Positions 1-46,914 of a stretch of DNA of 64,000 nt are shown here, piece after piece. Origin of the DNA: Candidatus Nomurabacteria bacterium RIFCSPHIGHO2_01_FULL_41_71 (GTDB lineage Bacteria; Patescibacteriota; Minisyncoccia; Phycocordibacterales; UBA9973); NCBI GenBank assembly GCA_001785355.1, contig MFTQ01000021.1:4033-68032 (forward strand), given 5' to 3'. Numbering within the stretch: position 1 is the first letter of the stretch; the number at the start of each line of letters is the position of its first letter. A program made the translations under genes and the position numbers. Under the pieces are notes generated by a model. It was not told the origin of the DNA, ran no database searches, and saw only the letters and a list, made by a program, of their open reading frames with translations.

Positions 1-1898
1 AAGTCCGAGAAGGTGAACCGTTTAGGAACAGAGAAGCGGTAATGTGTATTGTAAAACATTGGGGAAAAGATGAATATTTATGCCAAGAGTGGAAAGATTT
101 TTCAGGTGTTCGAACTCTTATATCTGGTGGTATAGAACCAGATGAAGATGTTGTTACCGCTGGCAAGCGTGAAATTTTAGAAGAGTCAGGTTTTTTGAAT
201 GCAAAGTTTATCAGGCAATTAGGTGGTTTTTCCTATGTAGAATTTTATCACCAAAGGAAGCAGACAAATATGCGAGCACGCTTCCGCTATCTTTATTTTG
301 AATTAGAAAATGGACAACGGGAAAAAATATCTGATAAAGAAAATAATCAACATCAATTTATCTGGAAAAAACAAAACGAAGTTGTGGATTTTTTAAACAT
401 TTCGGAAAAGGAAAGGATTTGGGAACTTTTTATTAATGGAAAAAAAGAAATTTTTACAGATGTTGGATATTTAGTAAATTCGGATAAGTTTGACGGTCTG
501 GATTCTAAAAAAGCAAAAAAAGAAATTGTAAAATTTATCGGTGCAAAGGAAAAAACAACCTTCAAACTTCGCGACTGGGTTTTTTCTAGGCAAAGGTACT
601 GGGGCGAGCCGATACCGCTCGTATTCTGTGAAAATTGTAGACGTCGGACGTCTCTGGAGACGTCCGACGTCTACAATGCGGGCTGGGTGCCAGTGCCGGA
701 TAAGGACTTGCCGGTTTTACTTCCCAAAGTAAAAACTTACAAGCCACGAGATGATGGCGAATCACCGCTCGCGGGGATGAAATCTTGGGTCAATGTGAAA
801 TGTCCGAAGTGTAAAGGTCCGGCCAGGAGGGAAACAGACACGATGCCGAATTGGGCAGGAAGCTCTTGGTATTTTTTGCGCTATACAGACCCAAAAAATA
901 AAAAAGAATTTGCATCACGGAAAAATCTGGAATATTGGACACCTGTGGATTGGTACAACGGGGGAATGGAGCACACTACTTTACACCTTTTATATTCTCG
1001 TTTTTGGCATAAATTTTTATATGATTTGAAGCTAGTGCCGACTATTGAGCCGTACGCGAAACGTACTTCGCATGGGATGATTTTGGCCGATGATGGGACA
1101 AAATTTTCAAAATCGAAAGGCAACGGAGTAGATCCGGATGATTTGGTAAAAACATACGGCGCAGACACTGTTCGTCTGTATGAAATGTTCATGGGGCCGT
1201 TTGATCAGGCGGTATCTTGGAGCACGGACAGCATGGTAGGACCGCGCAGATTTTTAGAGCGGGTGTGGCATATGTCAAGGACCGTCCTTGACAAACCTCA
1301 TCTCAGTCTTCTCCTGAAAGGAGAGGAGAAAGGGAACCCCTTCCCCTTTCAGGGGAAGGCGGGGGATGAGGTTGAACGCCTGTTGCATAAAACAATTAAG
1401 AAAGTATCGGAAGACATTGAAGCTATGCGTTTCAACACAGCAATTTCTACGCTCATGATTTTTGTGAATGAAATTGCTAAATTTGATTCTATCTCGCGGG
1501 ATGTTTACGAAAGATTTCTAAGGCTTCTGGCTCCGTTTGCTCCGCACATCACAGAAGAACTATGGAAAAATATTCACCTACCTCAAACCCCTTCCGAAGG
1601 AAGGGGCAGAACCGGGGCCAAATCTCTCTCCTTTGGGGAGGGCTCGGTAGAGGTGAAGTCAATTCATTTGAGTGAGTGGCCGAAATGGGACCCGAATTTG
1701 ATCAAAGACGAAGAGGCAAAGATTGTAATACAGGTAAACGGAAAAGTGAGAGCTGAAATTATGGTTAAGACAGACGAGGACGAAGAAACTATTAAACATC
1801 AAGTGTTGAATAGCGGGATTGTTTCTAAATACACCGTTGGCAAAGACCTCAAAAAAATGATTTATGTCAAGCACAGACTTATCAACATCGTGATTTAG
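1..1898 (+). CDS. leuS: Leucyl-tRNA synthetase, 5'-truncated by the window edge (frame open from nt 3). Unexpected Nudix-hydrolase box near the visible N-terminus
   Basis: LeuRS motifs: FKLRDWVFSRQRYWGEPIP, CENC...CPKC zinc knuckle, KFSKSK (KMSKS), GADTVRLY, anticodon-binding C-terminus. Nudix box GGIEPDEDVVTAGKREILEESGF at aa 29-51 of the visible frame. Several in-frame GC-rich palindromes. Confidence 0.85.
   Translation, partial: VREGEPFRNREAVMCIVKHWGKDEYLCQEWKDFSGVRTLISGGIEPDEDVVTAGKREILEESGFLNAKFIRQLGGFSYVEFYHQRKQTNMRARFRYLYFELENGQREKISDKENNQHQFIWKKQNEVVDFLNISEKERIWELFINGKKEIFTDVGYLVNSDKFDGLDSKKAKKEIVKFIGAKEKTTFKLRDWVFSRQRYWGEPIPLVFCENCRRRTSLETSDVYNAGWVPVPDKDLPVLLPKVKTYKPRDDGESPLAGMKSWVNVKCPKCKGPARRETDTMPNWAGSSWYFLRYTDPKNKKEFASRKNLEYWTPVDWYNGGMEHTTLHLLYSRFWHKFLYDLKLVPTIEPYAKRTSHGMILADDGTKFSKSKGNGVDPDDLVKTYGADTVRLYEMFMGPFDQAVSWSTDSMVGPRRFLERVWHMSRTVLDKPHLSLLLKGEEKGNPFPFQGKAGDEVERLLHKTIKKVSEDIEAMRFNTAISTLMIFVNEIAKFDSISRDVYERFLRLLAPFAPHITEELWKNIHLPQTPSEGRGRTGAKSLSFGEGSVEVKSIHLSEWPKWDPNLIKDEEAKIVIQVNGKVRAEIMVKTDEDEETIKHQVLNSGIVSKYTVGKDLKKMIYVKHRLINIVI
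637..674. repeat. 38-bp palindrome (18-bp arms, 2-nt centre) inside leuS, in-frame. Core GACGTCGGACGTC
   Basis: gtagacgtcggacgtctc-tg-gagacgtccgacgtctac read directly. Encodes extra RRRTSLETSDVY inside the LeuRS Zn knuckle. Confidence 0.9.
1274..1292. repeat. REP-like palindrome gtcaaggaccgtccttgac inside leuS. Same core as the REPs flanking the RAYT at 5764-6438
   Basis: Core aaggaccgtcctt shared with 5709-5737 and 6444-6472. Confidence 0.7.
1339..1359. repeat. GC-rich hairpin ccttcccct-ttc-aggggaagg inside leuS (in-frame)
   Basis: 9-bp perfect stem. One of a cluster of GC hairpins at 1296-1362 and 1588-1650 encoding low-complexity inserts. Confidence 0.7.
1588..1606. repeat. GC-rich hairpin ccccttcc-gaa-ggaagggg inside leuS (in-frame)
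   Basis: 8-bp perfect stem read directly. Confidence 0.7.
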
Positions 1899-5708: not shown

Positions 5709-5737
5709 AATTAAGCAAGGACCGTCCTTGCTTAATT
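5709..5737. repeat. REP palindrome aattaagcaagga-ccg-tccttgcttaatt upstream of RAYT-1, preceded by partial copies (5681-5708)
   Basis: 13-bp arms read directly; inverted copy at 6444-6472 downstream of the gene. Confidence 0.85.
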
Positions 5738-5763: not shown

Positions 5764-6438
5764 ATGTTACGCAAGGATCCATTTATCACCGGCGAATATT
5801 ATCATCTTTATAATCGTGGTATAGATAAAAGAGTAATATTCAAATCAAAAAAAGACTACGAGCGATTTATCATGCTTTTATATATTGCGAATACACAAAC
5901 AGAATCTTTTCGTTTGGATAATTTAATAAATCAACAGCATAAAACATTTAACGAAATTCTGGTATTAGATAGGGGTGAATTAATCATTTCTATTGGTGCA
6001 TGGTCTCTCATGACAAATCATTTTCATTTAATAGTAAGACAAGAAATCGATGGAGGAATTACTAAATTTATGAGAAAATTGGGGACAGGATACTCTATGT
6101 TTTTTAATATTAAATACCAAAGAACAGGTGCCTTGTTTGGCGGATTATTCAAATCAAAATTAATTGGAGTTGATGATAATTATATGCGACAATTATTCGG
6201 ATATATTCATATTAATCCCTTGGAAATAAAATTTCCTGATTGGCAAAAGCAAATCAAAAAACCTTTTAGTGAGATGAAAAAATTTCTTAGATTATATAAG
6301 TATTCCAGTTATCCCGATTATATTGAAGAGGATAGAGTAGAAAAAAATATATTAAATGCCAAAAATTTTCCTAAGTATTTTAATAATGCAAAATCCTTTA
6401 AAGATTTTATGGATGAATATTTCATCGAAAATAATTAA
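5764..6438 (+). CDS. IS200-like/REP-associated tyrosine transposase (RAYT) paralog 1
   Basis: GEYYHLYNRG N-terminus, HxH motif NHFHLIV, Y1-transposase fold hallmarks; flanked by cognate REP hairpins. Confidence 0.75.
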   Translation: MLRKDPFITGEYYHLYNRGIDKRVIFKSKKDYERFIMLLYIANTQTESFRLDNLINQQHKTFNEILVLDRGELIISIGAWSLMTNHFHLIVRQEIDGGITKFMRKLGTGYSMFFNIKYQRTGALFGGLFKSKLIGVDDNYMRQLFGYIHINPLEIKFPDWQKQIKKPFSEMKKFLRLYKYSSYPDYIEEDRVEKNILNAKNFPKYFNNAKSFKDFMDEYFIENN

Positions 6439-6443
6439 GCAAA

Positions 6444-6472
6444 AATTAAGCAAGGACGGTCCTTGCTTAATT
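6444..6472. repeat. REP palindrome (same family as 5709-5737) downstream of RAYT-1
   Basis: aattaagcaaggacggtccttgcttaatt. Confidence 0.85.
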
Positions 6473-6540
6473 TAAAGAGGGGCTTTAAAATTGCGATTTT
6501 TATGGTATCATTTAGTTAAGTCCGCCATGCGGGCTGTTTT

Positions 6541-8305: not shown

Positions 8306-10165
8306 ATGACAGACTTAAAATACATTCGAAATTTTAGTATCATTGCGCATATAGACCACGGCAAGTCTACCTTAGCAGATCGGATGTTGGAAATCACCCA
8401 TACTATTGAAGCGCGAAAAATGCGCGATCAAATACTTGACTCTATGGAACTTGAGCGCGAGCGGGGAATCACCATCAAGATGCAACCTGTTCGCATGGAA
8501 TATACAAACTTAGTACTCGGAGTACTAAGACTTAGTACTCCGAGTACTAAGACTAAATATATCTTAAATCTGATAGATACCCCGGGGCATATTGATTTTT
8601 CTTACGAGGTTTCCAGAGCGCTCAAGGCCGTGGAAGGTTCTATTTTATTGGTGGATTGCACCCAAGGAGTGCAGGCTCAGACTCTTACTACCCTTACCAT
8701 GGCCAGGGAAGGCGGACTTCGTATTATTCCGGTACTTTCTAAGATTGATTCTCCGCTTGCTCGAATAGAGGAAGTGAAAGAAGAAGTTAAACAGCTTTTA
8801 GGTTGTGGTGATGAGGAAGTGCTTTTGGTTTCTGGTAAGACCGGAGAAGGAGTGGAAAATCTGCTTCGTGAAGTAATAAAGCGTGTGCCGACACCTCGAG
8901 AAGATTATTCAGGAGACAATGTTTTACGCGCTCTTGTTTTCGATTTTAAGTATTCTAATCACAAAGGGGTAATAGTATTTGTGCGTATTCTGGATGGGGA
9001 AGTGAAGAAAGGAGATAACCTTCTCTTTTTGGTATCGGGAGAAAAATTTTCTTCTCTTGAAGTCGGAGTATTTACTCCGGAAGAAGTTTCTGCTGAATCA
9101 CTTTCATCCGGAGAAGTGGGATATATAGTAACTGGTATCAAGAGGCCGGGTATTGCTTCTGTCGGAGATACGATTACCATGTCCAAGAATCCTCTGCCCA
9201 CTCTTCCGGGATACATGAAGGCTATGCCGGTAGTATGGGCTTCCGTTTTTCCTGAAGATGCGGATGATTTCATAGAGTTAAAATTATCCTTAGGTAAGCT
9301 GAAGCTGTCTGATTCCGCTTTTTCTTATGAAGAAGAATCAAGCGGTTCACTCGGCCGGGGTTTCCGATGTGGATTTCTCGGGATGCTTCATTTAGAGATA
9401 ATTACCGAGAGGCTAAAACGTGAATTTGGACTAGAGCTTGTTATTACTACCCCCTCCATCACTTATGAAGTGGTAAAAAAGTCCTTTATAGGACAAGCAG
9501 GCAAAAGGGAGAAAATTTATTCCCCATACTTTTTCCCGGATGATGGCAGTGTTGAATCCGTATATGAACCATGGGTAAAAGCGCAAATAATCAGCCCCGC
9601 CGGATATTTGGGCGGTATTATGCAGCTTTTGTTCGAGCATGAAGCGGAAGTGGGCGAGACGCATAATTTTGGAGATAACAGATCGTCTATCTTGGTGGAA
9701 ATGCCGCTTCGGGAATTAATGCGCAATTTTTTCGACGAATTAAAAAGTATTTCCTCCGGTTATGCATCTATTTCTTATAAGCTTGGAGAGATGCGGAAGG
9801 CGGATGTGACCAGACTGGATATTCTGGTGGCTGACGAAGTGGTACCGGCATTTTCCAGGGTTGTGTCGAAAAAAAGAGTGGAAGAGGAAGCGGAGAAGGC
9901 AGTGGAGAAATTATATGGCCTTCTTCCTCGACAGATGTTTACTCTGAAGATTCAGGGAAGGGCTCTGGGGCGAATTATTTCTTCCCGCACTATTTCCGGT
10001 ATGAAGAAGGATGTAACCGCGCACATGTATGGAGGCGATATCACTCGTAAGATGAAACTTAGAGAAAAGCAAAAAAAAGGCAAAAAGAAAATGAAAGAAC
10101 GTGGGCGAGTAAATATTCCCCAAGATGTGTTTCTTAAAATGATGCGGTCGGGCAGAATTAACTAA
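8306..10165 (+). CDS. lepA: Elongation factor 4 (LepA)
   Basis: NFSIIAHIDHGKSTLADR G1 motif, DTPGHIDF, LepA C-terminal domain. Start moved to MTDLKYIRNF. Confidence 0.9.
   Translation: MTDLKYIRNFSIIAHIDHGKSTLADRMLEITHTIEARKMRDQILDSMELERERGITIKMQPVRMEYTNLVLGVLRLSTPSTKTKYILNLIDTPGHIDFSYEVSRALKAVEGSILLVDCTQGVQAQTLTTLTMAREGGLRIIPVLSKIDSPLARIEEVKEEVKQLLGCGDEEVLLVSGKTGEGVENLLREVIKRVPTPREDYSGDNVLRALVFDFKYSNHKGVIVFVRILDGEVKKGDNLLFLVSGEKFSSLEVGVFTPEEVSAESLSSGEVGYIVTGIKRPGIASVGDTITMSKNPLPTLPGYMKAMPVVWASVFPEDADDFIELKLSLGKLKLSDSAFSYEEESSGSLGRGFRCGFLGMLHLEIITERLKREFGLELVITTPSITYEVVKKSFIGQAGKREKIYSPYFFPDDGSVESVYEPWVKAQIISPAGYLGGIMQLLFEHEAEVGETHNFGDNRSSILVEMPLRELMRNFFDELKSISSGYASISYKLGEMRKADVTRLDILVADEVVPAFSRVVSKKRVEEEAEKAVEKLYGLLPRQMFTLKIQGRALGRIISSRTISGMKKDVTAHMYGGDITRKMKLREKQKKGKKKMKERGRVNIPQDVFLKMMRSGRIN
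8509..8551. repeat. 43-bp palindrome (two 21-bp AGTACT-containing units that are reverse complements of each other) inserted in-frame in lepA
   Basis: cttagtactcggagtactaag-a-cttagtactccgagtactaag. Adds ~14 aa (VLGVLRLSTPSTKT) between G1 and DTPGH. Confidence 0.85.
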
Positions 10166-10691: not shown

Positions 10692-10701
10692 GATTTTTTT
10701 G

Positions 10702-12318
10702 TTACACTATGCAAAAGCGGGATTGGTTTAGTGGTAGAATGCGACCTTCCCAAGGTTGAGACAGGAGTTCGATTCTCCTATCCCGCACCATAAACGAACT
10801 AGACGGTTTTTTAGAAGCTGAAATGCGGGACGCGCGAAGCGCGTCCCAAGGATTCCCGCCGAATTTCCCAAACGAATTCAGAATTTTTGGCGCGCTGGCG
10901 CGCACTAATTTTTCGCCAAGAAGCAGGTTCGAGCCAAAGATTTCTTTGGCACAGACCTTTTTCGCAAAAAGGTCTGTATCCTGTGCGATTCCATTCAGGT
11001 TTTGTGCGACTTTTAGCCAATCGAGTAGCGGTTCGAGCCAATCATTGTGCTTGTGTGAAAGAGAGGTCATTTCTTCTTCGAGCGACTTCTTTTGCAAAAT
11101 CAATTTTGCTTTTTCTACACGATAGGTTTCCTTTTCAATATCTTGGTCAAGGTAAGTATTCAGAAGTCGCTCTAACTTTTGTGAAATGACAGATATTTTG
11201 GTTTCTTTCTCTTTCACACTAGCACCCACGGATTGGGCGGAGTTTTTGAAATCAGCTCGTGCCATTTTTTCCAGTTCCTCCGCCCAATCTCGTGGCAAAG
11301 AAACTTTTTGAATTAGGGATGATAACTGGCGATTAAGTTCTTCTTCCCGAATACAAGGTTGAGAACATTTTACATTTTTGTTTTTCTTTGTGCAGTGATA
11401 ATAAGTGTAATTATGCACATTTCCGTTCTTCTGCTTCTTAACCTTGTATTCGCCAGTTATCATCATTCCACATTCGGTGCAAGATAATAACCCGCAAAAT
11501 GGTTGAGGTTCATTTTTAGATTTTCGTTCGGGTTGTCCGCGGAGTTTCATCACTTTTTGCACCGAATCAAAAAGTTTCTTTGAAATGATTGGCTCGTGCT
11601 TGCCTTCGTGCAATTCTCCCGCATAGTTGAAAAGTCCAGTATAAAAAGGGTTTGAAAGAATAAAAGTCGCACGAGTTTTGTGGATTCTCTTTCCACCTCT
11701 CGAAACGATTCCGTTTTTCGCCAAAAAGTTTGAAATATCTTCCAGTCGTTGATTTCCTTTCGCGTATCTCTCAAAAGCCAAGCGGATAATTTTCGCTTTC
11801 TTCTTTTCCACTACAATCGTTTTTGTTCTACTGTCGTTGATATATCCCAAAGGAGCTTGGCTTGGAAATATTCCCATTCTCACTTTTTGGCGAAGACCTC
11901 GTTTCGTATTTTCTGAAAGAGAATCCACATAGTATTTGCTTTGGACAAATGCCATAGAGAGTGAAAATTTCCCTTGCGGAGTATTCTCAAACCAGTGCGA
12001 AGGGAATTTCATGCTCGCAAGTTTTCCGATGTCGAGTAAGTAGATAATTTGTCCGCCATCCACCGAATTACGGGCTAGACGATCGGGATGCCAACTGACG
12101 ATACCATTTGCCTCACCTCGTTCAATGCGCTTCAGCATTTGCCCGAAAATAGGTCTGCCGGGAATTTTCGCAGATTGTTTTTCGATAAATTCCTCAATGA
12201 CCTCTAAGTTTTGCTCTCGGGCAAATGCCCGCAATTCGGTGAGTTGAGCGTCAATACTCAAAACTTGTTTGTCTTCGACATCGGTGCTCTTGCGAGCATA
12301 CAAAAAGAATTTTTGCAT
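10702..12318 (-). CDS. Large serine recombinase (resolvase/invertase catalytic domain + recombinase domain + Zn-ribbon). 3' end reads antisense through IR-A and tRNA-Gly
   Basis: YARKSTDVEDKQVLSIDAQ catalytic-Ser motif at N-terminus, CTECG...CTKKNKNVKC zinc ribbon, coiled-coil. True stop uncertain because the ORF runs through a GC-rich repeat. Confidence 0.85.
   Translation of the reverse strand: MQKFFLYARKSTDVEDKQVLSIDAQLTELRAFAREQNLEVIEEFIEKQSAKIPGRPIFGQMLKRIERGEANGIVSWHPDRLARNSVDGGQIIYLLDIGKLASMKFPSHWFENTPQGKFSLSMAFVQSKYYVDSLSENTKRGLRQKVRMGIFPSQAPLGYINDSRTKTIVVEKKKAKIIRLAFERYAKGNQRLEDISNFLAKNGIVSRGGKRIHKTRATFILSNPFYTGLFNYAGELHEGKHEPIISKKLFDSVQKVMKLRGQPERKSKNEPQPFCGLLSCTECGMMITGEYKVKKQKNGNVHNYTYYHCTKKNKNVKCSQPCIREEELNRQLSSLIQKVSLPRDWAEELEKMARADFKNSAQSVGASVKEKETKISVISQKLERLLNTYLDQDIEKETYRVEKAKLILQKKSLEEEMTSLSHKHNDWLEPLLDWLKVAQNLNGIAQDTDLFAKKVCAKEIFGSNLLLGEKLVRASAPKILNSFGKFGGNPWDALRASRISASKKPSSSFMVRDRRIELLSQPWEGRILPLNQSRFCIV
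10717..10790 (+). tRNA. tRNA-Gly (anticodon CCC), CCA encoded
   Basis: Cloverleaf folded by hand: acceptor GCGGGAT/ATCCCGC, anticodon loop TTCCCAA, T-arm AGGAG-TTCGATT-CTCCT. Confidence 0.85.
10785..10878. repeat. IR-A: 94-bp perfect inverted repeat, begins in the tRNA-Gly 3' end. Partner at 12545-12638
   Basis: Reverse complement of 10785-10878 equals 12545-12638 base for base. Similarity continues imperfectly ~55 bp further (10879-10935 vs 12481-12544). Confidence 0.9.
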
Positions 12319-12336
12319 ATATTTTTCTTAAAGCGA

Positions 12337-12393
12337 AAATGGCTATTTTAGGTTGAAATCCTAACGTTAGTTAGAAAACTAAAATAGCCATTT
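12337..12393. promoter_or_regulatory. 57-bp perfectly symmetric site (15-bp arms + central 10-bp palindrome ctaacgttag with CG centre) 19 bp upstream of the recombinase start. Candidate recombination site or operator
   Basis: aaatggctattttag-gttgaaatc-ctaacgttag-ttagaaaa-ctaaaatagccattt read directly. Confidence 0.4.
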
Positions 12394-12544
12394 CCGCCAA
12401 CTAACTGATAATGGATTTCAACACAGTTAGTATAGCAAAAATTCTTTTTGTATCCAAAGCAAATACTTTGAATTTGTATCGCACGGGATTTCGAACCTGC
12501 TTCTTGGCGAAAAAACAGTGCGCATCGCCGAAGGCGGTGCTCCA

Positions 12545-12638
12545 AATTCGTTTGGGAAATTCGGCGGGAATCCTTGGGACGCGCTTCGCGCGTCCCGCAT
12601 TTCAGCTTCTAAAAAACCGTCTAGTTCGTTTATGGTGC
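12545..12638. repeat. IR-A': inverted partner of IR-A, contains inverted copy of tRNA-Gly 3' end (ggtgc)
   Basis: See IR-A. Confidence 0.9.
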
Positions 12639-12958
12639 GTTTATTCTACCAAATCAGAACCTATTTTCAAAATCTGTAATCAATGGAGTTCCCCGCGCGC
12701 TACGCGCCTCTGTGCAAAGCACAGAGCTTTCCAAAGTGGAAAGTGCGGGGAACGCAACATCTCCGAACGGCTCAAATGCCAGTAAGTGAGCCGTTCAGTA
12801 AAATGGACGAAGTTTTGCAAAAACTATTTTCTGGGGAAAGGATTTTGCAAAACTTCGGCTAGTGTTTTTGAAATTCGGCGGGCATGCAAATTCCCCGCGC
12901 GGAGGAGGGGTCTGGGGAGGAATCCGCGCGGGCTTTGGATTTTGTTGGGCGGATGGGC
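12635..12958. repeat. IR-B: 324-bp perfect inverted repeat, GC-rich. Partner at 14801-15124
   Basis: Reverse complement equals 14801-15124. Generates identical 57-aa phantom N-termini on ORFs 12786 (+) and 14973 (-). Confidence 0.9.
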
Positions 12959-13010
12959 CACCTTTACTTTTTTAATCAAAAAATCTAGTATATTTTATGG
13001 AGGTGTTGAA

Positions 13011-13397
13011 TTGAAGACTTTCCTGAAGAAAGTCCTGCGATTCAGCATCGCAGGAGGTACCGGAGTTCTCAGCGGCTACGTGGCCCTGTATTCCCTCACC
13101 GAGTTTGTTGGGTGGTGGTATATATGGTCAGCTTTTGTGGCCTTCGTTCTTAACACTGGAGTGACTTTTTACCTCCAGAGGTTCTGGACGTTCAAAAACG
13201 AGAGCCTCAAACCTTTCAGCCCGAAGCAGTTTATCATGTACTCGATGATGACAGCTAGCTTCGTTGGCTCGAATATCATACTGCTTTACCTCTTAGTGGA
13301 GTACGTACATCTCCACTACATGGTAGCGCAGGTGTGTCTGACGGCTCTTTTTTCGGTGTTTAGCTTCGTGCTGACACCTAAGATCTTCACTCGCTAG
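13011..13397 (+). CDS. GtrA-family small membrane protein (polyprenol-sugar flippase-like). TTG start after ggaggtg RBS
   Basis: ~128 aa, 4 TM, FSIAGGTGVLSGY...LNTGVTFYLQRFWTF typical of GtrA family. Upstream part of the 203-aa ORF lies in IR-B and is not credited. Confidence 0.6.
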   Translation: MKTFLKKVLRFSIAGGTGVLSGYVALYSLTEFVGWWYIWSAFVAFVLNTGVTFYLQRFWTFKNESLKPFSPKQFIMYSMMTASFVGSNIILLYLLVEYVHLHYMVAQVCLTALFSVFSFVLTPKIFTR

Positions 13398-13477
13398 AAT
13401 CGGCGTGCTCCGCAAGGACACGCCGATCGCTACTTCTAATAGAAAAAATACTCCAAAAATGATAAAATGAACTAGCT

Positions 13478-14131
13478 ATGGACTCAGAAACTCAAAGACA
13501 ACAAATTGGTAATTCCCTGAAAATAACCACAGAAATTTTTGGAAGTTGTAATGCGGATTACCGAATTCTTGGTTCTGTTTTGTTGGTTGCATATACCAAT
13601 AGAGTTTTTAGACGCATAAATGATGTTGATATTCTCCTAGATATAAAAACTAAAGATTGTGTATTCGAAAAACTAAAAAACAATGGTTTCCAATTTGAGC
13701 CAAAAAAAGTGGCTGGATTTTCTTGGATTGAAGCAAAAAAAGATCAACACTTAGGACTAACCTTTTTTCTTGTTGGTGAATTCAGAAAAGAGTATTTTAC
13801 TTGGCGTTTTATGAAATTTTTTGAACTAAGAATACGAGCTGAATATTTACATCCAACTGAATATAATTTTGAAAATGTAAAATTTATTGGCATTCCCATT
13901 TCGTCTGCTATTGCTGGGATTAGACAATCATTTCTTAATCCGAAAAGAAAAATGGATAAGCAAATTTTAGAAAATGAAGTCAATAAATCTAAAGTAAAAA
14001 TTTACAATAATATTTCTGTTTATATTTTTGGTGTAAAGCTTCCATATTTGTATGATTCATTTTCTTTTCTTTACAATATTTATGGCGGGATACGAGTTAT
14101 GTTTGGTAAAAAGTATGAGGCTTGGGATTAA
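13478..14131 (+). CDS. Pol-beta-superfamily nucleotidyltransferase-like protein
   Basis: ILGSVLLVAY...x10...DVDILLD matches the GS-x(9-13)-DxD NTase motif. No further family assignment possible by eye. Confidence 0.4.
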   Translation: MDSETQRQQIGNSLKITTEIFGSCNADYRILGSVLLVAYTNRVFRRINDVDILLDIKTKDCVFEKLKNNGFQFEPKKVAGFSWIEAKKDQHLGLTFFLVGEFRKEYFTWRFMKFFELRIRAEYLHPTEYNFENVKFIGIPISSAIAGIRQSFLNPKRKMDKQILENEVNKSKVKIYNNISVYIFGVKLPYLYDSFSFLYNIYGGIRVMFGKKYEAWD

Positions 14132-14138
14132 ATAATTT

Positions 14139-14747
14139 ATGATTACATGGATAATAATTTGGTTATTTTTTTGGACTAGCGCATTAGGTTTTACTAACTA
14201 TCTTTTTAAAAAACATGGGATTACTTATTACGAAAAATCTTGGCAACACACTATTTTTTTTATAATCCTCACACTAATCCTTTTTGTTGTTTATCAAAAT
14301 CAGTTTTTCGTATATTTTAATAATTTTTCCCTATATCATTTATTGATTATCCTGCTCTTATTTATACTGTGGCTTTCTGTCCCAACTCTTTATAAAAATG
14401 ATTATTATGCCAAAAAAGAAAGGTTTGGTTATCAGTTGCCAAAATTTTTTGAAATATTTTTCCAAGACATTTGCTTTTTAGGTGGCTTACTGACCTTTGG
14501 GATTTCTCCGACAATGTTTGGTTTGGTGTTTTTCGTCGTTCATATTCCAGCAGTATTTCTCCTTCCTAAAAAATTTGCCCTCCTGCCTATATTTGGTTCA
14601 CTTTTTGGAGGGCTAATTTTGGCCCATTTACAATCTCAAGGGATAATAGGATTTTTAGTCACATTATTTATACATTTATCATTTTGGGCTACTCTACACT
14701 ATGCTCTACAGAAAAATATTTTAGGCATTACTCCATTAAAAAGATAA
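14139..14747 (+). CDS. Polytopic membrane protein, unknown function (cargo of the IR-B cassette)
   Basis: 6-7 hydrophobic helices; very AT-rich relative to the flanking repeats. Confidence 0.4.
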   Translation: MITWIIIWLFFWTSALGFTNYLFKKHGITYYEKSWQHTIFFIILTLILFVVYQNQFFVYFNNFSLYHLLIILLLFILWLSVPTLYKNDYYAKKERFGYQLPKFFEIFFQDICFLGGLLTFGISPTMFGLVFFVVHIPAVFLLPKKFALLPIFGSLFGGLILAHLQSQGIIGFLVTLFIHLSFWATLHYALQKNILGITPLKR

Positions 14748-14800
14748 TATTTGTATCTCGGCTTTGCCGAGATTTCAATATTTGAATTTGATTTCTTAAT

Positions 14801-15124
14801 GCCCATCCGCCCAACAAAATCCAAAGCCCGCGCGGATTCCTCCCCAGACCCCTCCTCCGCGCGGGGAATTTGCATGCCCGCCGAATTTCAAAAACACTAG
14901 CCGAAGTTTTGCAAAATCCTTTCCCCAGAAAATAGTTTTTGCAAAACTTCGTCCATTTTACTGAACGGCTCACTTACTGGCATTTGAGCCGTTCGGAGAT
15001 GTTGCGTTCCCCGCACTTTCCACTTTGGAAAGCTCTGTGCTTTGCACAGAGGCGCGTAGCGCGCGGGGAACTCCATTGATTACAGATTTTGAAAATAGGT
15101 TCTGATTTGGTAGAATAAACGCAC
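14801..15124. repeat. IR-B': inverted partner of IR-B
   Basis: See IR-B. Confidence 0.9.
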
Positions 15125-15206
15125 TTTTTTTTGAATAAAGTGTGTCACACTTTCATGTTTATATTTAGTTTTGACTTTCAAAAAGCGTGGGAGTATAATA
15201 TGGAGT

Positions 15207-17364: not shown

Positions 17365-17865
17365 TTAAATAGACTTTACTCGGATGACATTTTTCTTGTC
17401 TTTGTCCACTTTCTGGAGCTTGATGGTAAGGAGTCCGTGTCTCTCCACCGCTTCTACTTCTTCAGGCTCTATTTCTTGAGGAAGAACGATGGTACGGGAA
17501 AATTTGCCCCAGTAAAGCTCTCTGACGAAATAATTATCTTCATCGACATTGCGATTTTCTCCACGCTTGCCCTGAATGGTAACCATGTCTCTCGCTATGG
17601 TAAGCTCTAGATCTTCCGGTTTTACTCCGGCCACCATGGCTTGGATTACGATATCGGATGCTGTCTGATATACATCTATAGTGAGTTCTGCTTCATCATT
17701 CTCTTCTTCAATCCAGTTGCCACCCCCTTGCCCGTTTTTCTTTTCCAGCTTGGTTACGTGCTTACTGGGAGAAACTTCTTCCGGCCCTTCTTCCAAGCGC
17801 ATTGTTCCGGTTAATTTTTCAAAAAAAGTTCTTTTTCTATTTTCTTTTTCCATAATTTTTTTCAA
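17365..17865 (-). CDS. Hsp20/alpha-crystallin small heat-shock protein
   Basis: ACD core ...GLLTIKLQK, AxxxNGVL-like region. Confidence 0.8.
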   Translation of the reverse strand: MKKIMEKENRKRTFFEKLTGTMRLEEGPEEVSPSKHVTKLEKKNGQGGGNWIEEENDEAELTIDVYQTASDIVIQAMVAGVKPEDLELTIARDMVTIQGKRGENRNVDEDNYFVRELYWGKFSRTIVLPQEIEPEEVEAVERHGLLTIKLQKVDKDKKNVIRVKSI

Positions 17866-18569
17866 TTATTATTAAGATCCATTCTTCTCAATTTCTCAAA
17901 AAGGAGGAATATAATTATAGCGCCTACCCACAAGAAGGAAAACACTTTCAAAAAATCCGCTCCTCCATTCTTCATTATAAAAAAATTAAAGGCGCTATGC
18001 AAGCCGATGGCAAGGATAATTCCAACTATAGTGTATAAAAATTTTCTGCGTCCGTCCATAAAGAAAGAAAGCCCCATACTCACGCCGATTACTCCGCTTG
18101 AGACGGTATGTAGCAAAGTAGATCCCAGGAAGCGCAAGTGCCCGGTAAGGAGCCCTACCGCTGTCTGACCCAGAGAGATTGGTTTTATCAGGAAAAGGGT
18201 GTTTTCCAGCGCGGCAAATCCTAAAGCCACGGTTATGAGATATATAGGCCAGTCTGTGGGTTCATCGGCCTGGCTGGTATTTGAAACGATGAAAAGAACC
18301 ATTAAGAATTTTATCAATTCCTCTACGCCGGCCCAGGCCACAAGTTCCCAACCATGAGGCAGGGAAAATCCTTGAACAACTTTCTGGACCGGCAGAACCA
18401 GCAAGACACTTGCCATACCCAGAAAGAAAACCATTGCGAGCAATCCTTTAGGCTCTGGATTTTTTCTGTCTTCCCGAAGCCAAAACCACAGCCACAGTAG
18501 GGAAGGGATAATACCAATCAAGAATGCGATTCCTATAATTTTTGGATTACCGATGTTTAGCATGGCCAT
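17862..18569 (-). CDS. PrsW-family intramembrane protease-like membrane protein
   Basis: GVEELIKF and FAALENTLF motifs typical of PrsW. Start moved to MAMLNIG (upstream ORF part overlaps valS). Confidence 0.5.
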   Translation of the reverse strand: MAMLNIGNPKIIGIAFLIGIIPSLLWLWFWLREDRKNPEPKGLLAMVFFLGMASVLLVLPVQKVVQGFSLPHGWELVAWAGVEELIKFLMVLFIVSNTSQADEPTDWPIYLITVALGFAALENTLFLIKPISLGQTAVGLLTGHLRFLGSTLLHTVSSGVIGVSMGLSFFMDGRRKFLYTIVGIILAIGLHSAFNFFIMKNGGADFLKVFSFLWVGAIIIFLLFEKLRRMDLNNN

Positions 18570-20707
18570 TTTTCCGCTATTAATAAATTTTTTTGGTCGG
18601 GCCTGTCTATCCCCGCCTGTCCGGCAGGCGGGGATGAGGCAGACATCATTGACCAAATTTCTTCGGTGACAAAAGGCGTAAAGGGATGGAGTATTTTCAG
18701 GCAATCTTGCCAGATGGGTAAAAGCGATTTTTTCATATCATCGTCTTTTTTGCTTTGCTCGATTATTTCATCCGCAAATTTGTGCCAGATGTAATGATAA
18801 ATTTTTTCGCTTGCCAGATAAAAACGATAATTTTCCATATCGGCGGTTATGTCTTTTTTGATATTTTCAAATTCTTCTATGACATTCTTTTTTGTTTCTG
18901 ATTCCCCACTTTTTTGATTCTCCAGCACGAACCGGGTAATGTTCCAGATTTTATTGGCGAAGTTTTTATATCCGCGGATTTTATCTTCCGATAGGGCGAG
19001 GGAAGTGCCCGGGGTATTGCCGACTATCATGGCTATGCGAAAAGCATCGGTTCCGTATTTTTCCGTGAGTGTCATCGGATCGATAACATTTCCTTTGCTT
19101 TTTGACATCTTTTGAGCTTTTGGGTCGAGTACCATTCCATGCAGATAAACTATATTGAAAGGAACTTTCCCAGTCATATAAAGCCCGAGCATTATCATTC
19201 TGGATACCCAGAAAAATATAATGTCCCCTCCGGTTTCCATTATACTGGTGGGATAAAATGCGGCGTAATCTTTTTGGTCCGGGTAGCCTAGCGATAAATA
19301 CGGCCACTGGCCGGAAGAAAACCAAGTATCGAAGGTATCCTTGTCTTTGAGAACTTTACCCCCGCATTTGTCGCAGGCGGATATTGTGTCTTCCAGGTCC
19401 GCCATTCCGTGCCCGCAGGCTTGACATATCTTGGCCGGTATCGGTATGCCCCAGACTATCTGTCTTGAAATATTCCAGTCAATAATTTTTTCGAGCCAGT
19501 GAATCGAGATTTTCTGATAATGATCCGGAATGTATTTTATTTTTCCGTCTTTTATATTTTCAAGCGCTTTTTTAGCCAGCGGCTTCATTTTTATAAACCA
19601 TTGACTTTTAATTTGCGGTTCGATAAGGGTTCCGCATTTATAGCAGGTTCGGACGATATGTTTGTAATTTTCGTCGATTTTTTCCACCAAACCTTTGCTT
19701 TTTAATTTTTCAATTATGAGAGGCCTGGCTTTATTTATATGTGTGCCGGCGAATTCTCCCGCGATTGGCAGTAATTTCCCGGTTTCATCAATGATCTGCT
19801 CCTTGTCCAGTCCGTGCCTGTCCGCAATCTCAAAATCAGCCGTATCGTGCCAAGGGGTGATAGTCATGACACCAGTGCCAAATTCCATATCGATCGCCTC
19901 GTCTTTTACTATAGTAGCGGTGATGGGGCCGTTAATCCACTCAAGTTTTATCTTTTGTCCGTTTTTATAATCAGCGTATCTTTTATCATCCGGATGCATA
20001 ACCACGTATTTGTCTCCGAATTTCGTCTCCGGTCTGGCTGTGCCGATGACGAATGGCCCGTATTTTAGATAGTAAAAGCTGTCCGTCCTTTCTTCGTCTT
20101 TTATTTCCAAATCAGAAAAGGATATCCGATGTTTCGGGCACCAGCTTACTATCTTCTCTCCGCGATAGGCCATTCCATCGTCGTATAGTTTTTTAAAACT
20201 TTGGCGAACTTTTTCCACTATATCTTTATCTAAAGTGAATTTTTCGCGAGACCAGTCGCAAGAAGCGCCCATTTTTTTGATTTGATTTTTTATGTTGGAT
20301 GAATTGTCGAGAGTAAAATCTAGGATTTCTTTATACAAATTATCTGGGTTCATGTCGAATCTGCTCCGGCCTTCTTTTTCCAATTTTTTTTCGTAAACAA
20401 CTTGTGTTTCAAAACCGGCATGGTCAAGTCCGGGTAGCCAAAGAGTCTTGAATCCTCTCATTCGCTTGTAGCGTATCATTACGTCTTCAATGGTCATTAC
20501 CAGGCCGTGGCCGGCATGCAGAGATCCGTTGGCGTTGACCGGAGGCATGATGATGGAAAATGATTTTCCAAAGTTTAGGTTCGTATCCGGCGAGTGTGTC
20601 CAAGGCGCGCCGGTTTCGGGCTGAAAAAATCCGCTTTCTTCCCAGAGTTTGTAGATGCGCCCTTCTGTTTTTTTAGGGTCGTAGGGCTTGAGTAGCTTTG
20701 GGTCCAT
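18557..20707 (-). CDS. valS: Valyl-tRNA synthetase (short form without C-terminal coiled-coil)
   Basis: HAGH-type HIGH region (SLHAGHGL), KMSKSKGN, ValRS editing/CP1 region. Confidence 0.9.
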   Translation of the reverse strand: MDPKLLKPYDPKKTEGRIYKLWEESGFFQPETGAPWTHSPDTNLNFGKSFSIIMPPVNANGSLHAGHGLVMTIEDVMIRYKRMRGFKTLWLPGLDHAGFETQVVYEKKLEKEGRSRFDMNPDNLYKEILDFTLDNSSNIKNQIKKMGASCDWSREKFTLDKDIVEKVRQSFKKLYDDGMAYRGEKIVSWCPKHRISFSDLEIKDEERTDSFYYLKYGPFVIGTARPETKFGDKYVVMHPDDKRYADYKNGQKIKLEWINGPITATIVKDEAIDMEFGTGVMTITPWHDTADFEIADRHGLDKEQIIDETGKLLPIAGEFAGTHINKARPLIIEKLKSKGLVEKIDENYKHIVRTCYKCGTLIEPQIKSQWFIKMKPLAKKALENIKDGKIKYIPDHYQKISIHWLEKIIDWNISRQIVWGIPIPAKICQACGHGMADLEDTISACDKCGGKVLKDKDTFDTWFSSGQWPYLSLGYPDQKDYAAFYPTSIMETGGDIIFFWVSRMIMLGLYMTGKVPFNIVYLHGMVLDPKAQKMSKSKGNVIDPMTLTEKYGTDAFRIAMIVGNTPGTSLALSEDKIRGYKNFANKIWNITRFVLENQKSGESETKKNVIEEFENIKKDITADMENYRFYLASEKIYHYIWHKFADEIIEQSKKDDDMKKSLLPIWQDCLKILHPFTPFVTEEIWSMMSASSPPAGQAGIDRPDQKNLLIAEKWPC
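18609..18635. repeat. GC-rich palindrome atccccgcctg-tccgg-caggcggggat inside the valS 3' end, overlapping the prsW-like start
   Basis: 11-bp perfect arms; encodes SSPPAGQAGIDRP tail of ValRS. Confidence 0.8.
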
Positions 20708-34858: not shown

Positions 34859-34960
34859 GGCTACACAAGACCGCGACAATTCCTTTCGGAACTGCCCTGC
34901 ACCCTTTCGGGCACAGACCACGCGAGTAGGCGGCTTGTGTAGCCGTTTTTACCCGCGTGG
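34859..34960 (+). ncRNA. Candidate structured RNA / cis-regulatory leader: GC-rich nested and alternative hairpins in an AT-rich intergenic region (strand not established)
   Basis: 11-bp stem ggctacacaag...cttgtgtagcc enclosing two UUCG-type hairpins. Competing ccacgcg...cgcgtgg stem followed by T-rich run; a second cgcgtggttttt copy at 34814. Confidence 0.25.
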
Positions 34961-35158
34961 ATTTATTTTCACCATGCCATTTTACCGGTTTAGGTGTTGT
35001 AATTTCATAGTAGCTCTTTTTTGACCTAAAAACAACACAACTTGCATACTAAATTTGGTATGCTACAATTAAAGTAATTGAATATGGAATGATAGATCGG
35101 CCACATGGTTTAATTGCAAGTTTTGCAGTTAAGTCGGCCGTTTTTTTATTTAATATAC

Positions 35159-38530: not shown

Positions 38531-39514
38531 TTACCTCGCGTGCAAGTAAAGATAAATATCTTCAAGCGCACGGACGGCATCGCCAGCCGCTATATTATTC
38601 TGGTGATAGAGCACGTTCGTGCAGTCTCCGGCGGCCCAGATACCCGGCACGTCAGTCTTGCCGGTGGATGGTTCAATTTTTATCCTGCCGATCTCGTCTA
38701 GGGAGAGTATATCTTTTACAAAATTGGTATTCGGAATCTGTCCGATCTCCACGAAAATTCCAGAAACTTTAAGTTCTTTTTCTTCGTCAGTTTTTTTATT
38801 TTTATATATTAATCCCTCTACGAATTTTTCACCTCTTACCTCCAGAATATCGGCATTTTTTATTACACTCATTTTCGGATTTTTTAAAACTTTTTCCACT
38901 GTAATTTCATCCGCTCGAAAAGTGTCGCTTCTGTTTATAAGCGTCACCGACTTGCAATACGCGAGTAGTTGGGCGGCTGTTTCAAAGCCCGCATTTCCGC
39001 CTCCTATGACCGCCACATCCATATCCGCAAAGAGTGGTCCATCGCAGGAAGCGCAGTAGGTAAGGCCCTTGTGTTCTAGTCGATCCGCGTTCTTGGCTTC
39101 GAGTTTTCTTCTGGCCGACCCGGTTGCCACCAGCACGGTCTTGGTTTCGAATTCTTCTCCTGTTTCTGTTTTTATCAGGAAGATTCTTTTGGACATTTCA
39201 GACGTTGGACGTCCGGTATTCGGATGTCCAACGTCTGAAACATCAGTCACTTTGGTTTCTTTCACTTCAAGTGTTTGCCCGCTTCCCGTATTAGCCATCA
39301 CGTGTTTCCTTAAATTTTCCGCCAGTTCAGCTCCGGAGAGGGAGGTGGTGCCGATCCAATTGTATACCTGTTCGGATACCACTGACTGCCCGCCCCATTC
39401 GGAGACGATAAGGAGGGTACGTAATTTTTTGCGCGCGGCATAAACCGCGGCGGCGGCTCCGGCGGGACCGCCGCCGATAATTATTAAATCGCATATCATA
39501 TTCACATTATACAC
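38531..39514 (-). CDS. trxB: Thioredoxin-disulfide reductase
   Basis: IIIGGGPAGAAAA FAD motif, redox-active CASCDG, NADPH GGGNAG motif. Confidence 0.85.
   Translation of the reverse strand: MYNVNMICDLIIIGGGPAGAAAAVYAARKKLRTLLIVSEWGGQSVVSEQVYNWIGTTSLSGAELAENLRKHVMANTGSGQTLEVKETKVTDVSDVGHPNTGRPTSEMSKRIFLIKTETGEEFETKTVLVATGSARRKLEAKNADRLEHKGLTYCASCDGPLFADMDVAVIGGGNAGFETAAQLLAYCKSVTLINRSDTFRADEITVEKVLKNPKMSVIKNADILEVRGEKFVEGLIYKNKKTDEEKELKVSGIFVEIGQIPNTNFVKDILSLDEIGRIKIEPSTGKTDVPGIWAAGDCTNVLYHQNNIAAGDAVRALEDIYLYLHAR
39196..39240. repeat. Imperfect 45-bp palindrome with GACGTTGGACGTCC core inserted in-frame in trxB
   Basis: tttcagacgttggacgtccgg-tat-tcggatgtccaacgtctgaaa. Encodes SDVGHPNTGRPTSEMS. 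Core nearly identical to the leuS palindrome at 637-674. Confidence 0.8.
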
Positions 39515-40713: not shown

Positions 40714-40797
40714 ATTTTCTTGATAAAATTAATCCGATTGGTATGTCGGGCTTGTATATGGGCATACTACCACTAGTCCGAAAAAAAGCAAACCCCA

Positions 40798-40818
40798 CTT
40801 GGAGGCAAGACCTCCAAG
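40798..40818. repeat. REP hairpin cttggagg-CAAGA-cctccaag (family cognate to RAYT-2), plus adjacent half-copy
   Basis: Copies also at 41272-41293 (inside RAYT-2 ORF) and 41496-41516. Confidence 0.85.
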
Positions 40819-40835
40819 TTCCCTCCAAGTTCGAA

Positions 40836-41480
40836 TTAATCAAATTCAAAGTTTTTGACCTCTTCCTTTCTATTACATGTAGTTTTCCAAGTTTCTAGTG
40901 CAAATTTCTCGTATTCTTTTTTGGATTTGAATTGGCCAAGAATCATAGATTTTTCACAAAAATTGATATTACTAGATTGGGTATATTCTATCCAACTTGA
41001 CATGTTTAACGATTTTTTAATTACCCCATTTTTGTCATAGTTGTTTAAATTTATATAAGCGCCAACTTGAAGTAAATACTCATTTGAATTTATGTGTTTA
41101 CTTTTAAATTTTCCCTGAAAGAGTGAACCCGATCTCTTATTTCTTTCGTTAAAATACATAGTGTAACCAGTTCCAAGTCGTTGCATAAATTTTTCCACTC
41201 CTTTTTCCACAAGGGGAGTGAGAAGAAAGTGATAATGATTAGGATTCAAACAGTAAGTTACAAATCTTACCAACTTGGAGGTCTTGCCTCCAAGTTGCTT
41301 TTCTTTTACAAAACTATTCTCATACAAACTACCAATGGGATTTTTAGTATTAAATTCTTTCATACTTTGAAAAAATCTTCCCAAATCTTTTTTATCGGAA
41401 AATATATTTCTTTTATCTACGCCCCTATTATAAATATGATAATACTCTCCTGGCAGGAAGGCCATTTTTCTCATAGACAT
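40836..41480 (-). CDS. IS200-like/RAYT-type tyrosine transposase paralog 2, inserted between ftsA and ftsZ
   Basis: GEYYHIYNRG, HYHFLLTP HxH motif. One REP copy inside the ORF encodes KQLGGKTSKLV in-frame. Confidence 0.7.
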   Translation of the reverse strand: MSMRKMAFLPGEYYHIYNRGVDKRNIFSDKKDLGRFFQSMKEFNTKNPIGSLYENSFVKEKQLGGKTSKLVRFVTYCLNPNHYHFLLTPLVEKGVEKFMQRLGTGYTMYFNERNKRSGSLFQGKFKSKHINSNEYLLQVGAYINLNNYDKNGVIKKSLNMSSWIEYTQSSNINFCEKSMILGQFKSKKEYEKFALETWKTTCNRKEEVKNFEFD

Positions 41481-41495
41481 ACCTAAATTATAGCA

Positions 41496-41516
41496 CTTGG
41501 AGGCAAGACCTCCAAG
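41496..41516. repeat. REP hairpin (RAYT-2 family) upstream of RAYT-2
   Basis: cttggaggcaagacctccaag. Confidence 0.85.
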
Positions 41517-41520
41517 TGGA

Positions 41521-46141: not shown

Positions 46142-46163
46142 TTGCCAAAGCAAGGCTTTGGCA
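46142..46163. repeat. REP hairpin ttgccaaag-CAAGG-ctttggcaa (family cognate to RAYT-3)
   Basis: Copies at 46453-46478 (inside the RAYT-3 ORF) and 46881-46913 (14-bp arms). Confidence 0.85.
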
Positions 46164-46177
46164 GTAAACATGAGTGT

Positions 46178-46873: not shown

Positions 46874-46880
46874 GGAATTA

Positions 46881-46913
46881 CCAAATTGCCAAAGCAAGGC
46901 TTTGGCAATTTGG
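46881..46913. repeat. REP hairpin (RAYT-3 family), extended 14-bp arms
   Basis: ccaaattgccaaag-caagg-ctttggcaatttgg. Confidence 0.85.
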
Positions 46914-46914
46914 T

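Follow-up and report, generated by a model that had tools for sequence, protein, structure and literature searches.

The 3′ part of leuS in a member of the Patescibacteria raises the question of how an essential gene can hold a run of GC-rich palindromes and still be read through. The stretch analysed, which we call the window, is 64,000 nucleotides of contig MFTQ01000021.1 (assembly GCA_001785355.1) from Candidatus Nomurabacteria bacterium RIFCSPHIGHO2_01_FULL_41_71. It has a GC content of 40% and opens with the C-terminal part of leucyl-tRNA synthetase (LeuRS). An earlier, sequence-only reading had pointed to six in-frame GC-rich palindromes in this part of the gene and had likened them to the palindromic elements that colonise coding sequences in Rickettsia. 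Here, we show that the six hairpins make up four elements of three families, all in frame, and we consider it likely that these are copies of elements of the repetitive extragenic palindrome (REP) type or its hairpin-forming doublet type (REPIN), lodged within the reading frame. The gene and the four elements are as follows.

3–1898, plus strand: leuS open reading frame (ORF), uninterrupted; C-terminal 631 aa of LeuRS.
634–677, no strand assigned: P1, a 44-nt perfect palindrome; arms ATTGTAGACGTCGGACGTCTC / GAGACGTCCGACGTCTACAAT, loop TG.
1273–1293, no strand assigned: P2, a 21-nt palindrome, TGTCAAGGAC-C-GTCCTTGACA; encodes MSRTVLDK.
1295–1372, plus strand: family A element, 78 nt; terminal inverted repeats ACCTCATC / GATGAGGT; encodes PHLSLLLKGEEKGNPFPFQGKAGDEV.
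1573–1657, plus strand: site-3 element, 85 nt; terminal repeats TTCACCT / AGGTGAA; encodes HLPQTPSEGRGRTGAKSLSFGEGSVEV.

The six palindromes in the 3′ 1.9 kb of leuS were found again, with the ORF open throughout, and the corrections concern mainly their limits. The palindrome placed at 637–674 is genuine and longer than claimed, running from 634 to 677 with 21-bp perfect arms and a 2-nt loop; that at 1274–1292 occupies 1273–1293 (10-bp arms, 1-nt loop), and the hairpins at 1339–1359 (9-bp stem, 3-nt loop) and 1588–1606 (8-bp stem, 3-nt loop) lie exactly where they had been reported. The hairpin given as 1296–1320 had been misplaced: the true hairpin spans 1307–1327, and 1295–1306 is the left terminal inverted repeat of the larger family A element. 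The last, at 1628–1650, exists only as a weak, imperfect pairing that forms part of a longer imperfect stem at about 1609–1649. Perfect hairpins whose stem measures 8 bp or more and whose arms have a GC content of at least 50% number four in the 1.9 kb of leuS; 300 codon shuffles of the same segment gave a mean of 0.04 and a maximum of 1, and the density of such hairpins over the whole window is 0.28 per kb. The predicted DNA fold of P1 reaches −24.4 kcal/mol (z = −10.2), with z = −6.3 for P2 and only −2.7 for the site-3 element. No T-run follows the hairpin of any of the leuS elements on inspection of the sequence, and a reading of the hairpins as terminators was dropped for that reason.

Perfect palindromes are a known signature of chimeras, and an assembly or amplification artefact, for example fold-back chimeras, has to be weighed on that ground, with nothing more specific in its favour. 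An independently assembled ENA contig from the same organism (L104) matches the window over 11 kb with four differences and then diverges near window position 10951. Every leuS palindrome is identical between the two, so the leuS palindromes are no assembly artefact; the intact reading frame and the related copies in many unrelated assemblies and at orthologous positions agree with this, and we give an artefact practically no credence. L104 also supplies the full-length LeuRS of 1028 aa (P0001), whose closest matches are proteins from Nomurabacteria, Paceibacterota and Parcubacteria metagenome-assembled genomes (MAGs). At window positions 1679 and 1688, where the window has G, L104 has T, changing the otherwise invariant LeuRS motif WPKW to CPKC; this difference may be strain variation or a sequencing error. 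Separately, a Nudix hydrolase domain (PF00293) is embedded in this LeuRS upstream of the KLRDW motif (window 3–600, with the Nudix box GGIEPDEDVVTAGKREILEESGF at about 130–200), and of the 120 LeuRS homologues from Parcubacteria-type bacteria that match best, 118 have the same domain according to precomputed Pfam hits.

Do these segments belong to LeuRS as it is usually built? Among 39 aligned relatives, 59–71% identical, site 1, where P1 lies, has the minimal CxxCG form in 28, the other 11 bearing varied inserts at or next to that point, and 33 have nothing inserted at site 3. The Thermus thermophilus enzyme (1h3n) has no insert at either site. Site 2, which holds the family A element, is a region of variable length in all LeuRS, and its peptide FPFQGKAGDEV is shared by a single relative (P0010). 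The earlier claim that the inserts are absent from typical LeuRS is thus borne out at sites 1 and 3, and the inserts in leuS are lineage-specific or patchy among orthologues. We did not find the same peptides on non-palindromic DNA across the orthologues; shared sites mostly hold other palindromes. Orthologue DNA, fetched through protein identity, carries GC-rich hairpins of its own: L001 and L003 have CCCCTCCCCTGATAAGGGGAGGGG at site 3, and L002 has a 27-nt palindrome at another variable site of the gene. An AKASAGKE insert occurs at site 1 in four orthologues, and the L002 DNA that encodes it is not clearly palindromic, which rules out assigning every insert at these sites to a hairpin element.

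The predicted structure gives a similar picture of where the inserts sit. The AlphaFold model of full LeuRS has a mean predicted local distance difference test score (pLDDT) of 79.8, with five segments below 50, and the two double-hairpin inserts are placed in low-confidence loops (residues 830–847 for family A and 928–946 for the site-3 element, both below 50) amid confidently modelled domains; the P1 insert is of intermediate confidence, about 60 at residues 611–620. A third segment below 50, residues 240–260, coincides with a fifth palindromic insert in the same leuS, upstream of the window (CCTCACCCATAGCCTCTCTCCTT...AAGGAGAGGGTGGCCTAAGGATGAGTGAG, L104 3800–3880); that insert corresponds to residues 233–260 and occupies a variable site, likewise below 50 in pLDDT, within the editing-domain region.

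Comparison with the L001 leuS, which was picked by protein homology and not by its elements, indicates that the elements and the gene around them have diverged to different degrees. The family A element is identical to its L001 counterpart at 68 of 78 positions and P2 at 20 of 21, against 64–74% for the flanking leuS DNA. L001 carries an identical hairpin B at site 2 and, at the position of P2, the sequence TGTCAAGGAC-G-GTCCTTGACA, which is P2 with its centre base flipped. Conservation of the elements above that of their flanks suggests recent independent insertion at the same site, homogenisation, or constraint on the hairpin.

Whether the elements are particular to leuS can be judged from their distribution: the copies of each family are dispersed and sharp-ended, and they occur in unrelated Patescibacteria genes and in spacers. 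A scan for repeats, which the sequence-only reading had proposed as a check, found the same hairpins at non-homologous sites, namely in a second gene of the window, in unrelated genes, in spacers and on 85 metagenome contigs. The second gene is the host of a further copy of P1.

39196–39240, no strand assigned: second P1 copy in the window, in frame; encodes SDVGHPNTGRPTSE.

Its host is a thioredoxin-reductase/AhpF-like gene (38531–39514, minus strand), whose protein has about 14 additional residues near P1 relative to solved homologues. In leuS, P1 encodes RRRTSLETSDVY directly after the CENC of the zinc knuckle, and direct reading finds zero stop codons across all six frames of the element. 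Each of its arms is itself a mini-hairpin, AGACGT-CGG-ACGTCT in the leuS copy, and the family follows the plan AGACGT-YGG-ACGTCT, a spacer and then the inverse, which makes it a doublet. The arms are constant between copies, and the loop and outer stem vary; CGTC is present in all P1 arms, and the leuS copy begins with GTAG and ends with CTAC, the feet of other copies being varied (CCAG, ACAG, TTAG). With a strict two-arm pattern, we found P1 in 85 metagenome stretches, giving 91 copies with the two of the window included; the contigs have 30–48% GC and at most three copies each, and a scan of viral contigs with P1 gave 0 matches. Of the 91 copies, about 40 fall within an ORF of 200 aa or more. 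A Pfam scan identified the ten longest hosts, and all are housekeeping genes, namely topA, RNase J, gatB, smc and purH. In topA, RNase J and gatB, orthologous codons carry identical P1 arms, and the flanks are 67–82% identical between the species, in a comparison set that was itself chosen by the exact arm pattern.

The family A element has a more elaborate layout, in which hairpin A (1307–1327) is followed by a variable spacer and hairpin B (1339–1359). Hairpin A is TCTTCTCC TGAAA GGAGAGGA, 8 bp including one G·T, and hairpin B is approximately its reverse complement (17 nt, 88%), so that the element can be folded either as a Y or as a single long hairpin. The terminal inverted repeats, ACCTCA(C)CC... 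/ ...GG(GA)TGAGGT, have 94% of cells paired in that helix. An exact-pattern search of 596 Gb of species-representative genomes returned 15 matches, all in Patescibacteria and mostly in Nomurabacteria; together with the window copy and two in L001 these make 18 full copies, spread over the window and about 10 other Patescibacteria assemblies (9 GTDB genomes and one metagenome contig). One MAG has four copies, on three contigs, and another has three. The copies have sharp ends, ACCTCA...TGAGGT, and unrelated flanks, in which A is preferred before the element and T after it.

The hosts of family A are unrelated genes and intergenic spacers: 13 of the 18 copies lie within ORFs of at least 100 aa, and four to five are apparently intergenic, of which the two that were inspected (L007 and L009) sit between convergent genes. 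No direct repeat indicating a target-site duplication was seen around the 18 copies aligned with their flanks, and no parent insertion sequence with family A termini was seen in about 700 kb of loci. The site-3 element of leuS is a divergent relative of family A with the same plan: a covariance model built from the 18 copies gave it as the only other significant match in the window (29.5 bits, E of about 2e-6, over the full model length). It combines the hairpin at 1588–1606 with the imperfect hairpin at about 1609–1649.

How might such elements be moved? The window contains three genes for candidate transposases similar to REP-associated tyrosine transposases (RAYTs), each with its own flanking palindrome.

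5764–6438, plus strand: RAYT-like gene 1, 224 aa, putative RAYT-like Y1 (HUH) transposase.
5709–5737, no strand assigned: REP-like palindrome upstream of RAYT-like gene 1, AATTAAGCAAGGAC-C-GTCCTTGCTTAATT.
6443–6473, no strand assigned: REP-like palindrome downstream of RAYT-like gene 1, AAATTAAGCAAGGAC-G-GTCCTTGCTTAATTT; centre base flipped relative to the upstream copy.
40797–41518, minus strand: RAYT-like gene 2 locus, with the gene at 40836–41480 and its own palindrome ACTTGGAGGCAAGACCTCCAAGT at 40797–40819 and 41494–41518.
46143–46916, plus strand: RAYT-like gene 3 locus, with the gene at about 46184–46870 and the palindrome TGCCAAAGCAAGGCTTTGGCA at 46143–46163 and 46878–46916.

Gene 1 lies 4.4 kb downstream of P2 and is flanked on both sides by AATTAAGCAAGGACsGTCCTTGCTTAATT, with which P2 has the 15-nt core CAAGGACsGTCCTTG in common; the label of REP core, which had been given to the palindrome at 1274–1292 from its letters, is therefore well founded. 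P2 ends one base upstream of the 78-nt family A element. The association of gene and palindrome is conserved between genomes: the homologue of gene 1 in L105/L106, 78% identical, lies between two copies of the same palindrome, and a 68%-identical homologue in L012 is flanked by the compensated variant TAAGCTAGGACTGTCCTAGCTTA. Gene 1 is missing from the syntenic murJ-ABC interval of L002. P1 likewise borders RAYT-like genes: L063 has a copy at either end of the gene, L037 and L058 have a copy at one end, and in L023 and L037 P1 is located inside such genes, these four being metagenome loci that were collected through P1. Two of the three families, P1 and the core of P2, thus adjoin RAYT-like transposase genes. 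Cognate palindromes occur inside two of the window's genes as well: gene 2 has an in-frame copy of its own palindrome at 41271–41297, and gene 3 has one at 46450–46480, a 9-aa insert after the HUH motif. At least 970 homologues of the RAYT-like family are present in Parcubacteria, some of them named transposase or IS200-like, and the NHxH and Y-x-x-x-N motifs are invariant in 28 members. As a separate observation, the family is 73–79% identical across many Parcubacteria classes, compared with about 51–65% for LeuRS among the same groups, which suggests strong constraint or recent horizontal spread.

Palindromes of the same kind are found in frame in further genes of the window, and their positions bear on the choice of insertion site.

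8500–8560, no strand assigned: lepA doublet, two 21-nt palindromes CTTAGTACTC-G/C-GAGTACTAAG, in frame.
18609–18635, no strand assigned: aminoacyl-tRNA synthetase (aaRS) hairpin, GC-rich, ATCCCCGCCTG-TCCGG-CAGGCGGGGAT, in frame; SSPPAGQAGID.

The lepA doublet adds 12 aa in the loop PVRMEY[..]YILNLIDTPGH and, with P1 and family A, conforms to the REPIN plan, in which a short spacer lies between two hairpin units in inverted orientation. In L014 this LepA loop is occupied by a family A element and in L018 by another, 29-aa-longer insert; it is empty in L002 and L101. The aaRS hairpin lies in a second class-I synthetase gene (18557–20707, minus strand), after the EEIW helix, at a position homologous to leuS site 3. 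The ORF at 17862–18704, which had been considered as a frameshifted C-terminus of this synthetase, encodes a PrsW-family protease, and the hairpin therefore marks no frameshift. Because the LepA loop and the position common to leuS site 3 and the second synthetase are re-used, particular surface loops appear to be hit repeatedly by unrelated elements.

We propose that RAYT-like proteins would recognise these hairpins in single-stranded DNA and then either duplicate or relocate them, as in known REP systems, and that dissemination would proceed without target-site duplication. The survivors would include insertions in coding DNA that are free of stops, a multiple of three in length and situated in tolerant surface loops; many surviving insertions would be coding because these genomes hold very little intergenic DNA. 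Such inserts would simply be translated as an extra low-complexity peptide, and permissive loops (three in LeuRS, one in LepA and one shared with the paralogous synthetase) would be re-hit by different families in different lineages. Mobilisation by RAYT-like proteins is what we infer from the analogy with those systems. We also entertain, more tentatively, the possibility that Paceibacteria-type bacteria of the candidate phyla radiation (CPR) maintain, side by side, several RAYT-REPIN-like systems that live chiefly in surface loops of essential proteins (aminoacyl-tRNA synthetases, EF4, topoisomerase I, RNase J, GatB and SMC) and less in DNA between genes, the elements being kept more uniform than the host genes by re-insertion, homogenisation or a host function; on balance we would not expect this wider proposal to hold in full.

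Several observations weigh against reading the leuS palindromes as mobile REP/REPIN-type elements, and some of them speak for other origins. In rsmH (47959–48031), the arms of a perfect inverted repeat are 25 bp long and lie 23 nt apart. The left arm encodes the conserved GRGFSFM, and the gene is only 3 residues longer than its L080 homologue; this repeat looks like a local inverted copy of adjacent coding sequence rather than an inserted element. In leuS, the P1 palindrome reaches with its outer 5 bp into the codons on either side, and insertion at P2 is not demonstrated because P2 adds no length relative to orthologues. All three features favour the formation of palindromes in place by template-switch (snap-back) replication errors, in which case they would not be mobile copies at all. 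However, identical sequences at unrelated loci cannot arise by local templating, whereas the same 28–80-nt sequences with sharp ends recur across many genomes, in intergenic DNA as well as in genes unrelated to one another, and border transposase-like genes. Template switching as the source of the palindromes is for these reasons unlikely, but local templated palindrome formation may contribute, as in the rsmH arm and the extension of P1 in leuS, by perfecting or extending arms after insertion.

A second group of observations concerns the way in which the elements are read. The 13 coding copies of family A occupy about 9 independent sites and all have one orientation, and the right half of every one of them is in a single reading frame, FPFQGKAGDEV, a bias that purely neutral insertion would not predict. 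P1 in long ORFs is mostly read as xDVGR..RRPTSx. Such uniformity is expected if the inserted peptides are selected as lineage-specific surface loops, with the palindromy of the DNA secondary. Yet two frames are in use for the left half of family A, with spacer length compensating, and all three occur in P1; moreover, intergenic copies exist, the host proteins are unrelated and the inserts are predicted to be disordered. Purifying selection acting on random insertions would itself leave a frame bias of the kind seen in P1 and family A, and selection for the peptides seems to us very improbable as the origin of the inserts. The orientation and frame bias of family A could also reflect hairpins that are selected cis-acting structures needed by the host, whether for mRNA stability or processing, for pausing or as sites for DNA-binding proteins. 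This would fit the better conservation of the elements than of the surrounding coding DNA, the identity of P1 arms at orthologous topA, RNase J and gatB codons (with the selection of that set noted above) and the stems of family A, in which 97% of cells are paired, with one compensatory pair dividing two subfamilies. That pair is a single event, and covariation as proof of a selected structure was dropped because of it. The elements are patchy among orthologues, with unrelated palindromes in the same loops, and no T-run follows any of those in leuS, while recent insertion or homogenisation also predicts the conservation. We regard a required cis-acting role as quite unlikely.

The remaining points concern mobility and the transposase, and they also count against the interpretation that we prefer, namely mobile REP/REPIN-type elements. 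The assignment of the genes as RAYTs is from distant matches: with Pfam PF01797, gene 1 scores 22.3 bits (E = 1.5e-4) against a cut-off of 23 and gene 2 scores 31.2 bits, above it, whereas the best NCBIfam match, REP_Tyr_transpos NF047646, is at 24–29 bits, far under the cut-off of 80. The AlphaFold model of RAYT-like protein 1 (pLDDT 45.5) is too poor for fold assignment, and a search of PDB sequences with RAYT-like protein 2 gave nothing meaningful. For family A and the site-3 element, no transposase partner was found in the loci examined. No pair of strains with and without a given insertion was found, and the per-genome copy numbers, which in REP systems reach tens to hundreds, come from 64 kb and fragments, with two to three copies per family in the window.

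Other features of the window are recorded here for completeness. It contains 7 tRNA genes and a LOOT RNA (34875–34996, minus strand; Rfam RF03000, 66.4 bits). A large serine recombinase gene (10702–12318, minus strand) adjoins tRNA-Gly and is bracketed by a 95-nt perfect inverted repeat (10784–10878 / 12545–12639); a 324-nt perfect inverted repeat (12635–12958 / 14801–15124) encloses 1.8 kb with a GtrA-like gene. The point at which L104 diverges from the window, 10951, is within the region 10700–15130, which may be an integrated or invertible segment.

Genomes of the Patescibacteria are about 1 Mb in size and are usually described as streamlined and repeat-poor. Protein-coding palindromes were long held to be peculiar to Rickettsia, intragenic REPs having since been found in a few proteobacteria and in Opitutus. 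Against this background, what stands out in the present locus is the number of elements in a single essential gene (four, plus a fifth shortly upstream of the window), the re-use of loops by unrelated elements across species and the proximity of candidate transposases. If our interpretation is correct, these bacteria would offer a natural system for studying how REPIN-type elements choose coding DNA and survive in it, and many of the lineage-specific low-complexity inserts in CPR proteins, which hamper alignments and phylogenies, would be explained; gene callers and builders of protein families would then do well to regard these stretches as mobile DNA instead of conserved sequence. Should the reading of surface loops as a habitat also be true, the elements would steadily supply new peptide loops throughout the lineage and would amount to a form of genome dynamics so far unrecognised in these minimal genomes. 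Our literature search, confined to one library of papers, found no report of such palindromic elements in Patescibacteria, Parcubacteria or the candidate phyla radiation, and their nearest counterparts have to be sought in other systems.

Some of the GC clusters and double-hairpin elements of mitochondrial genomes lie in coding regions. The mobile GC clusters and double-hairpin elements known from the mitochondria of fungi and other organisms (PMC4478555, PMC7218506, PMC2800124) resemble ours in being GC-rich single or double hairpins in a compact, AT-rich genome, but they are organellar, have no sequence relation to ours and differ in their mechanism of mobility or have none known, so that the likeness is one of form only. 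[quoted passage not shown] Unlike MITEs, family A shows no target-site duplication at its ends, no parent insertion sequence was found in the loci examined, and our elements are shorter than most MITEs.

The Rickettsia palindromic elements (RPEs) are, as summarised in a later review, the classic in-frame palindromic repeats of housekeeping genes (Ogata et al. 2000, 2002, via PMC10969869), and the earlier proposal of Rickettsia-type elements colonising coding DNA is supported by our results. Like RPEs, the elements described here are in frame in unrelated proteins (LeuRS, a thioredoxin-reductase-like protein, LepA, TopA, RNase J, GatB, SMC and PurH), where they are presumably translated; their insertion points fit the protein fold, as judged from low pLDDT and from the gaps relative to 1h3n at sites 1 and 3; and the host has a reduced genome. 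Size and host set them apart from RPEs, since they measure 21, 44, 78 and 85 nt, compared with about 100–150 nt for RPE-1, and are GC-rich elements in a genome of 40% GC from another phylum. In addition, no transposase is known for RPEs, whereas a candidate transposase is present here.

Closer relatives are the REP/REPIN-RAYT systems (Bertels & Rainey 2011, PMC3116915) and intragenic REPs. With the former, our elements share the short hairpin units (the arms of P1, P2, hairpins A and B, and REP1–3), the doublets of inverted units with a short spacer, the position of a Y1/HUH transposase-like gene between cognate palindromes (gene 1, L012 and L105/L106 for the P2 core; L063, L037 and L058 for P1) and the co-variation of palindrome and gene between genomes. 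They differ in their Patescibacteria host and new sequences, in transposase-like proteins that are only distantly similar to curated RAYT models, in the several RAYT-like genes per 64 kb, where RAYTs are usually single-copy, and in the presence of cognate palindromes inside the transposase genes as well. REPs are extragenic by name, whereas much of the set described here is intragenic and in essential genes, and the copies in leuS, the trxB-like gene, lepA and the aaRS gene are inside intact ORFs; intragenic REPs are nonetheless documented, Di Nocera et al. 2013 (PMC3733652) having described GTAG- and CGTC-tagged REPs, including dimers that encode 20–30 aa, inside ORFs of several bacteria and having assigned some RPEs to the CGTC class. 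Of the features of a REP/REPIN-RAYT system, the short units, the doublets and the placing of a Y1 transposase-like gene between cognate palindromes are present, an extragenic location is not, and the putative transposase is assigned from distant matches. What we describe looks like a known phenomenon, that of intragenic REPs and of the palindromic elements of Rickettsia, in a new lineage, the Patescibacteria.

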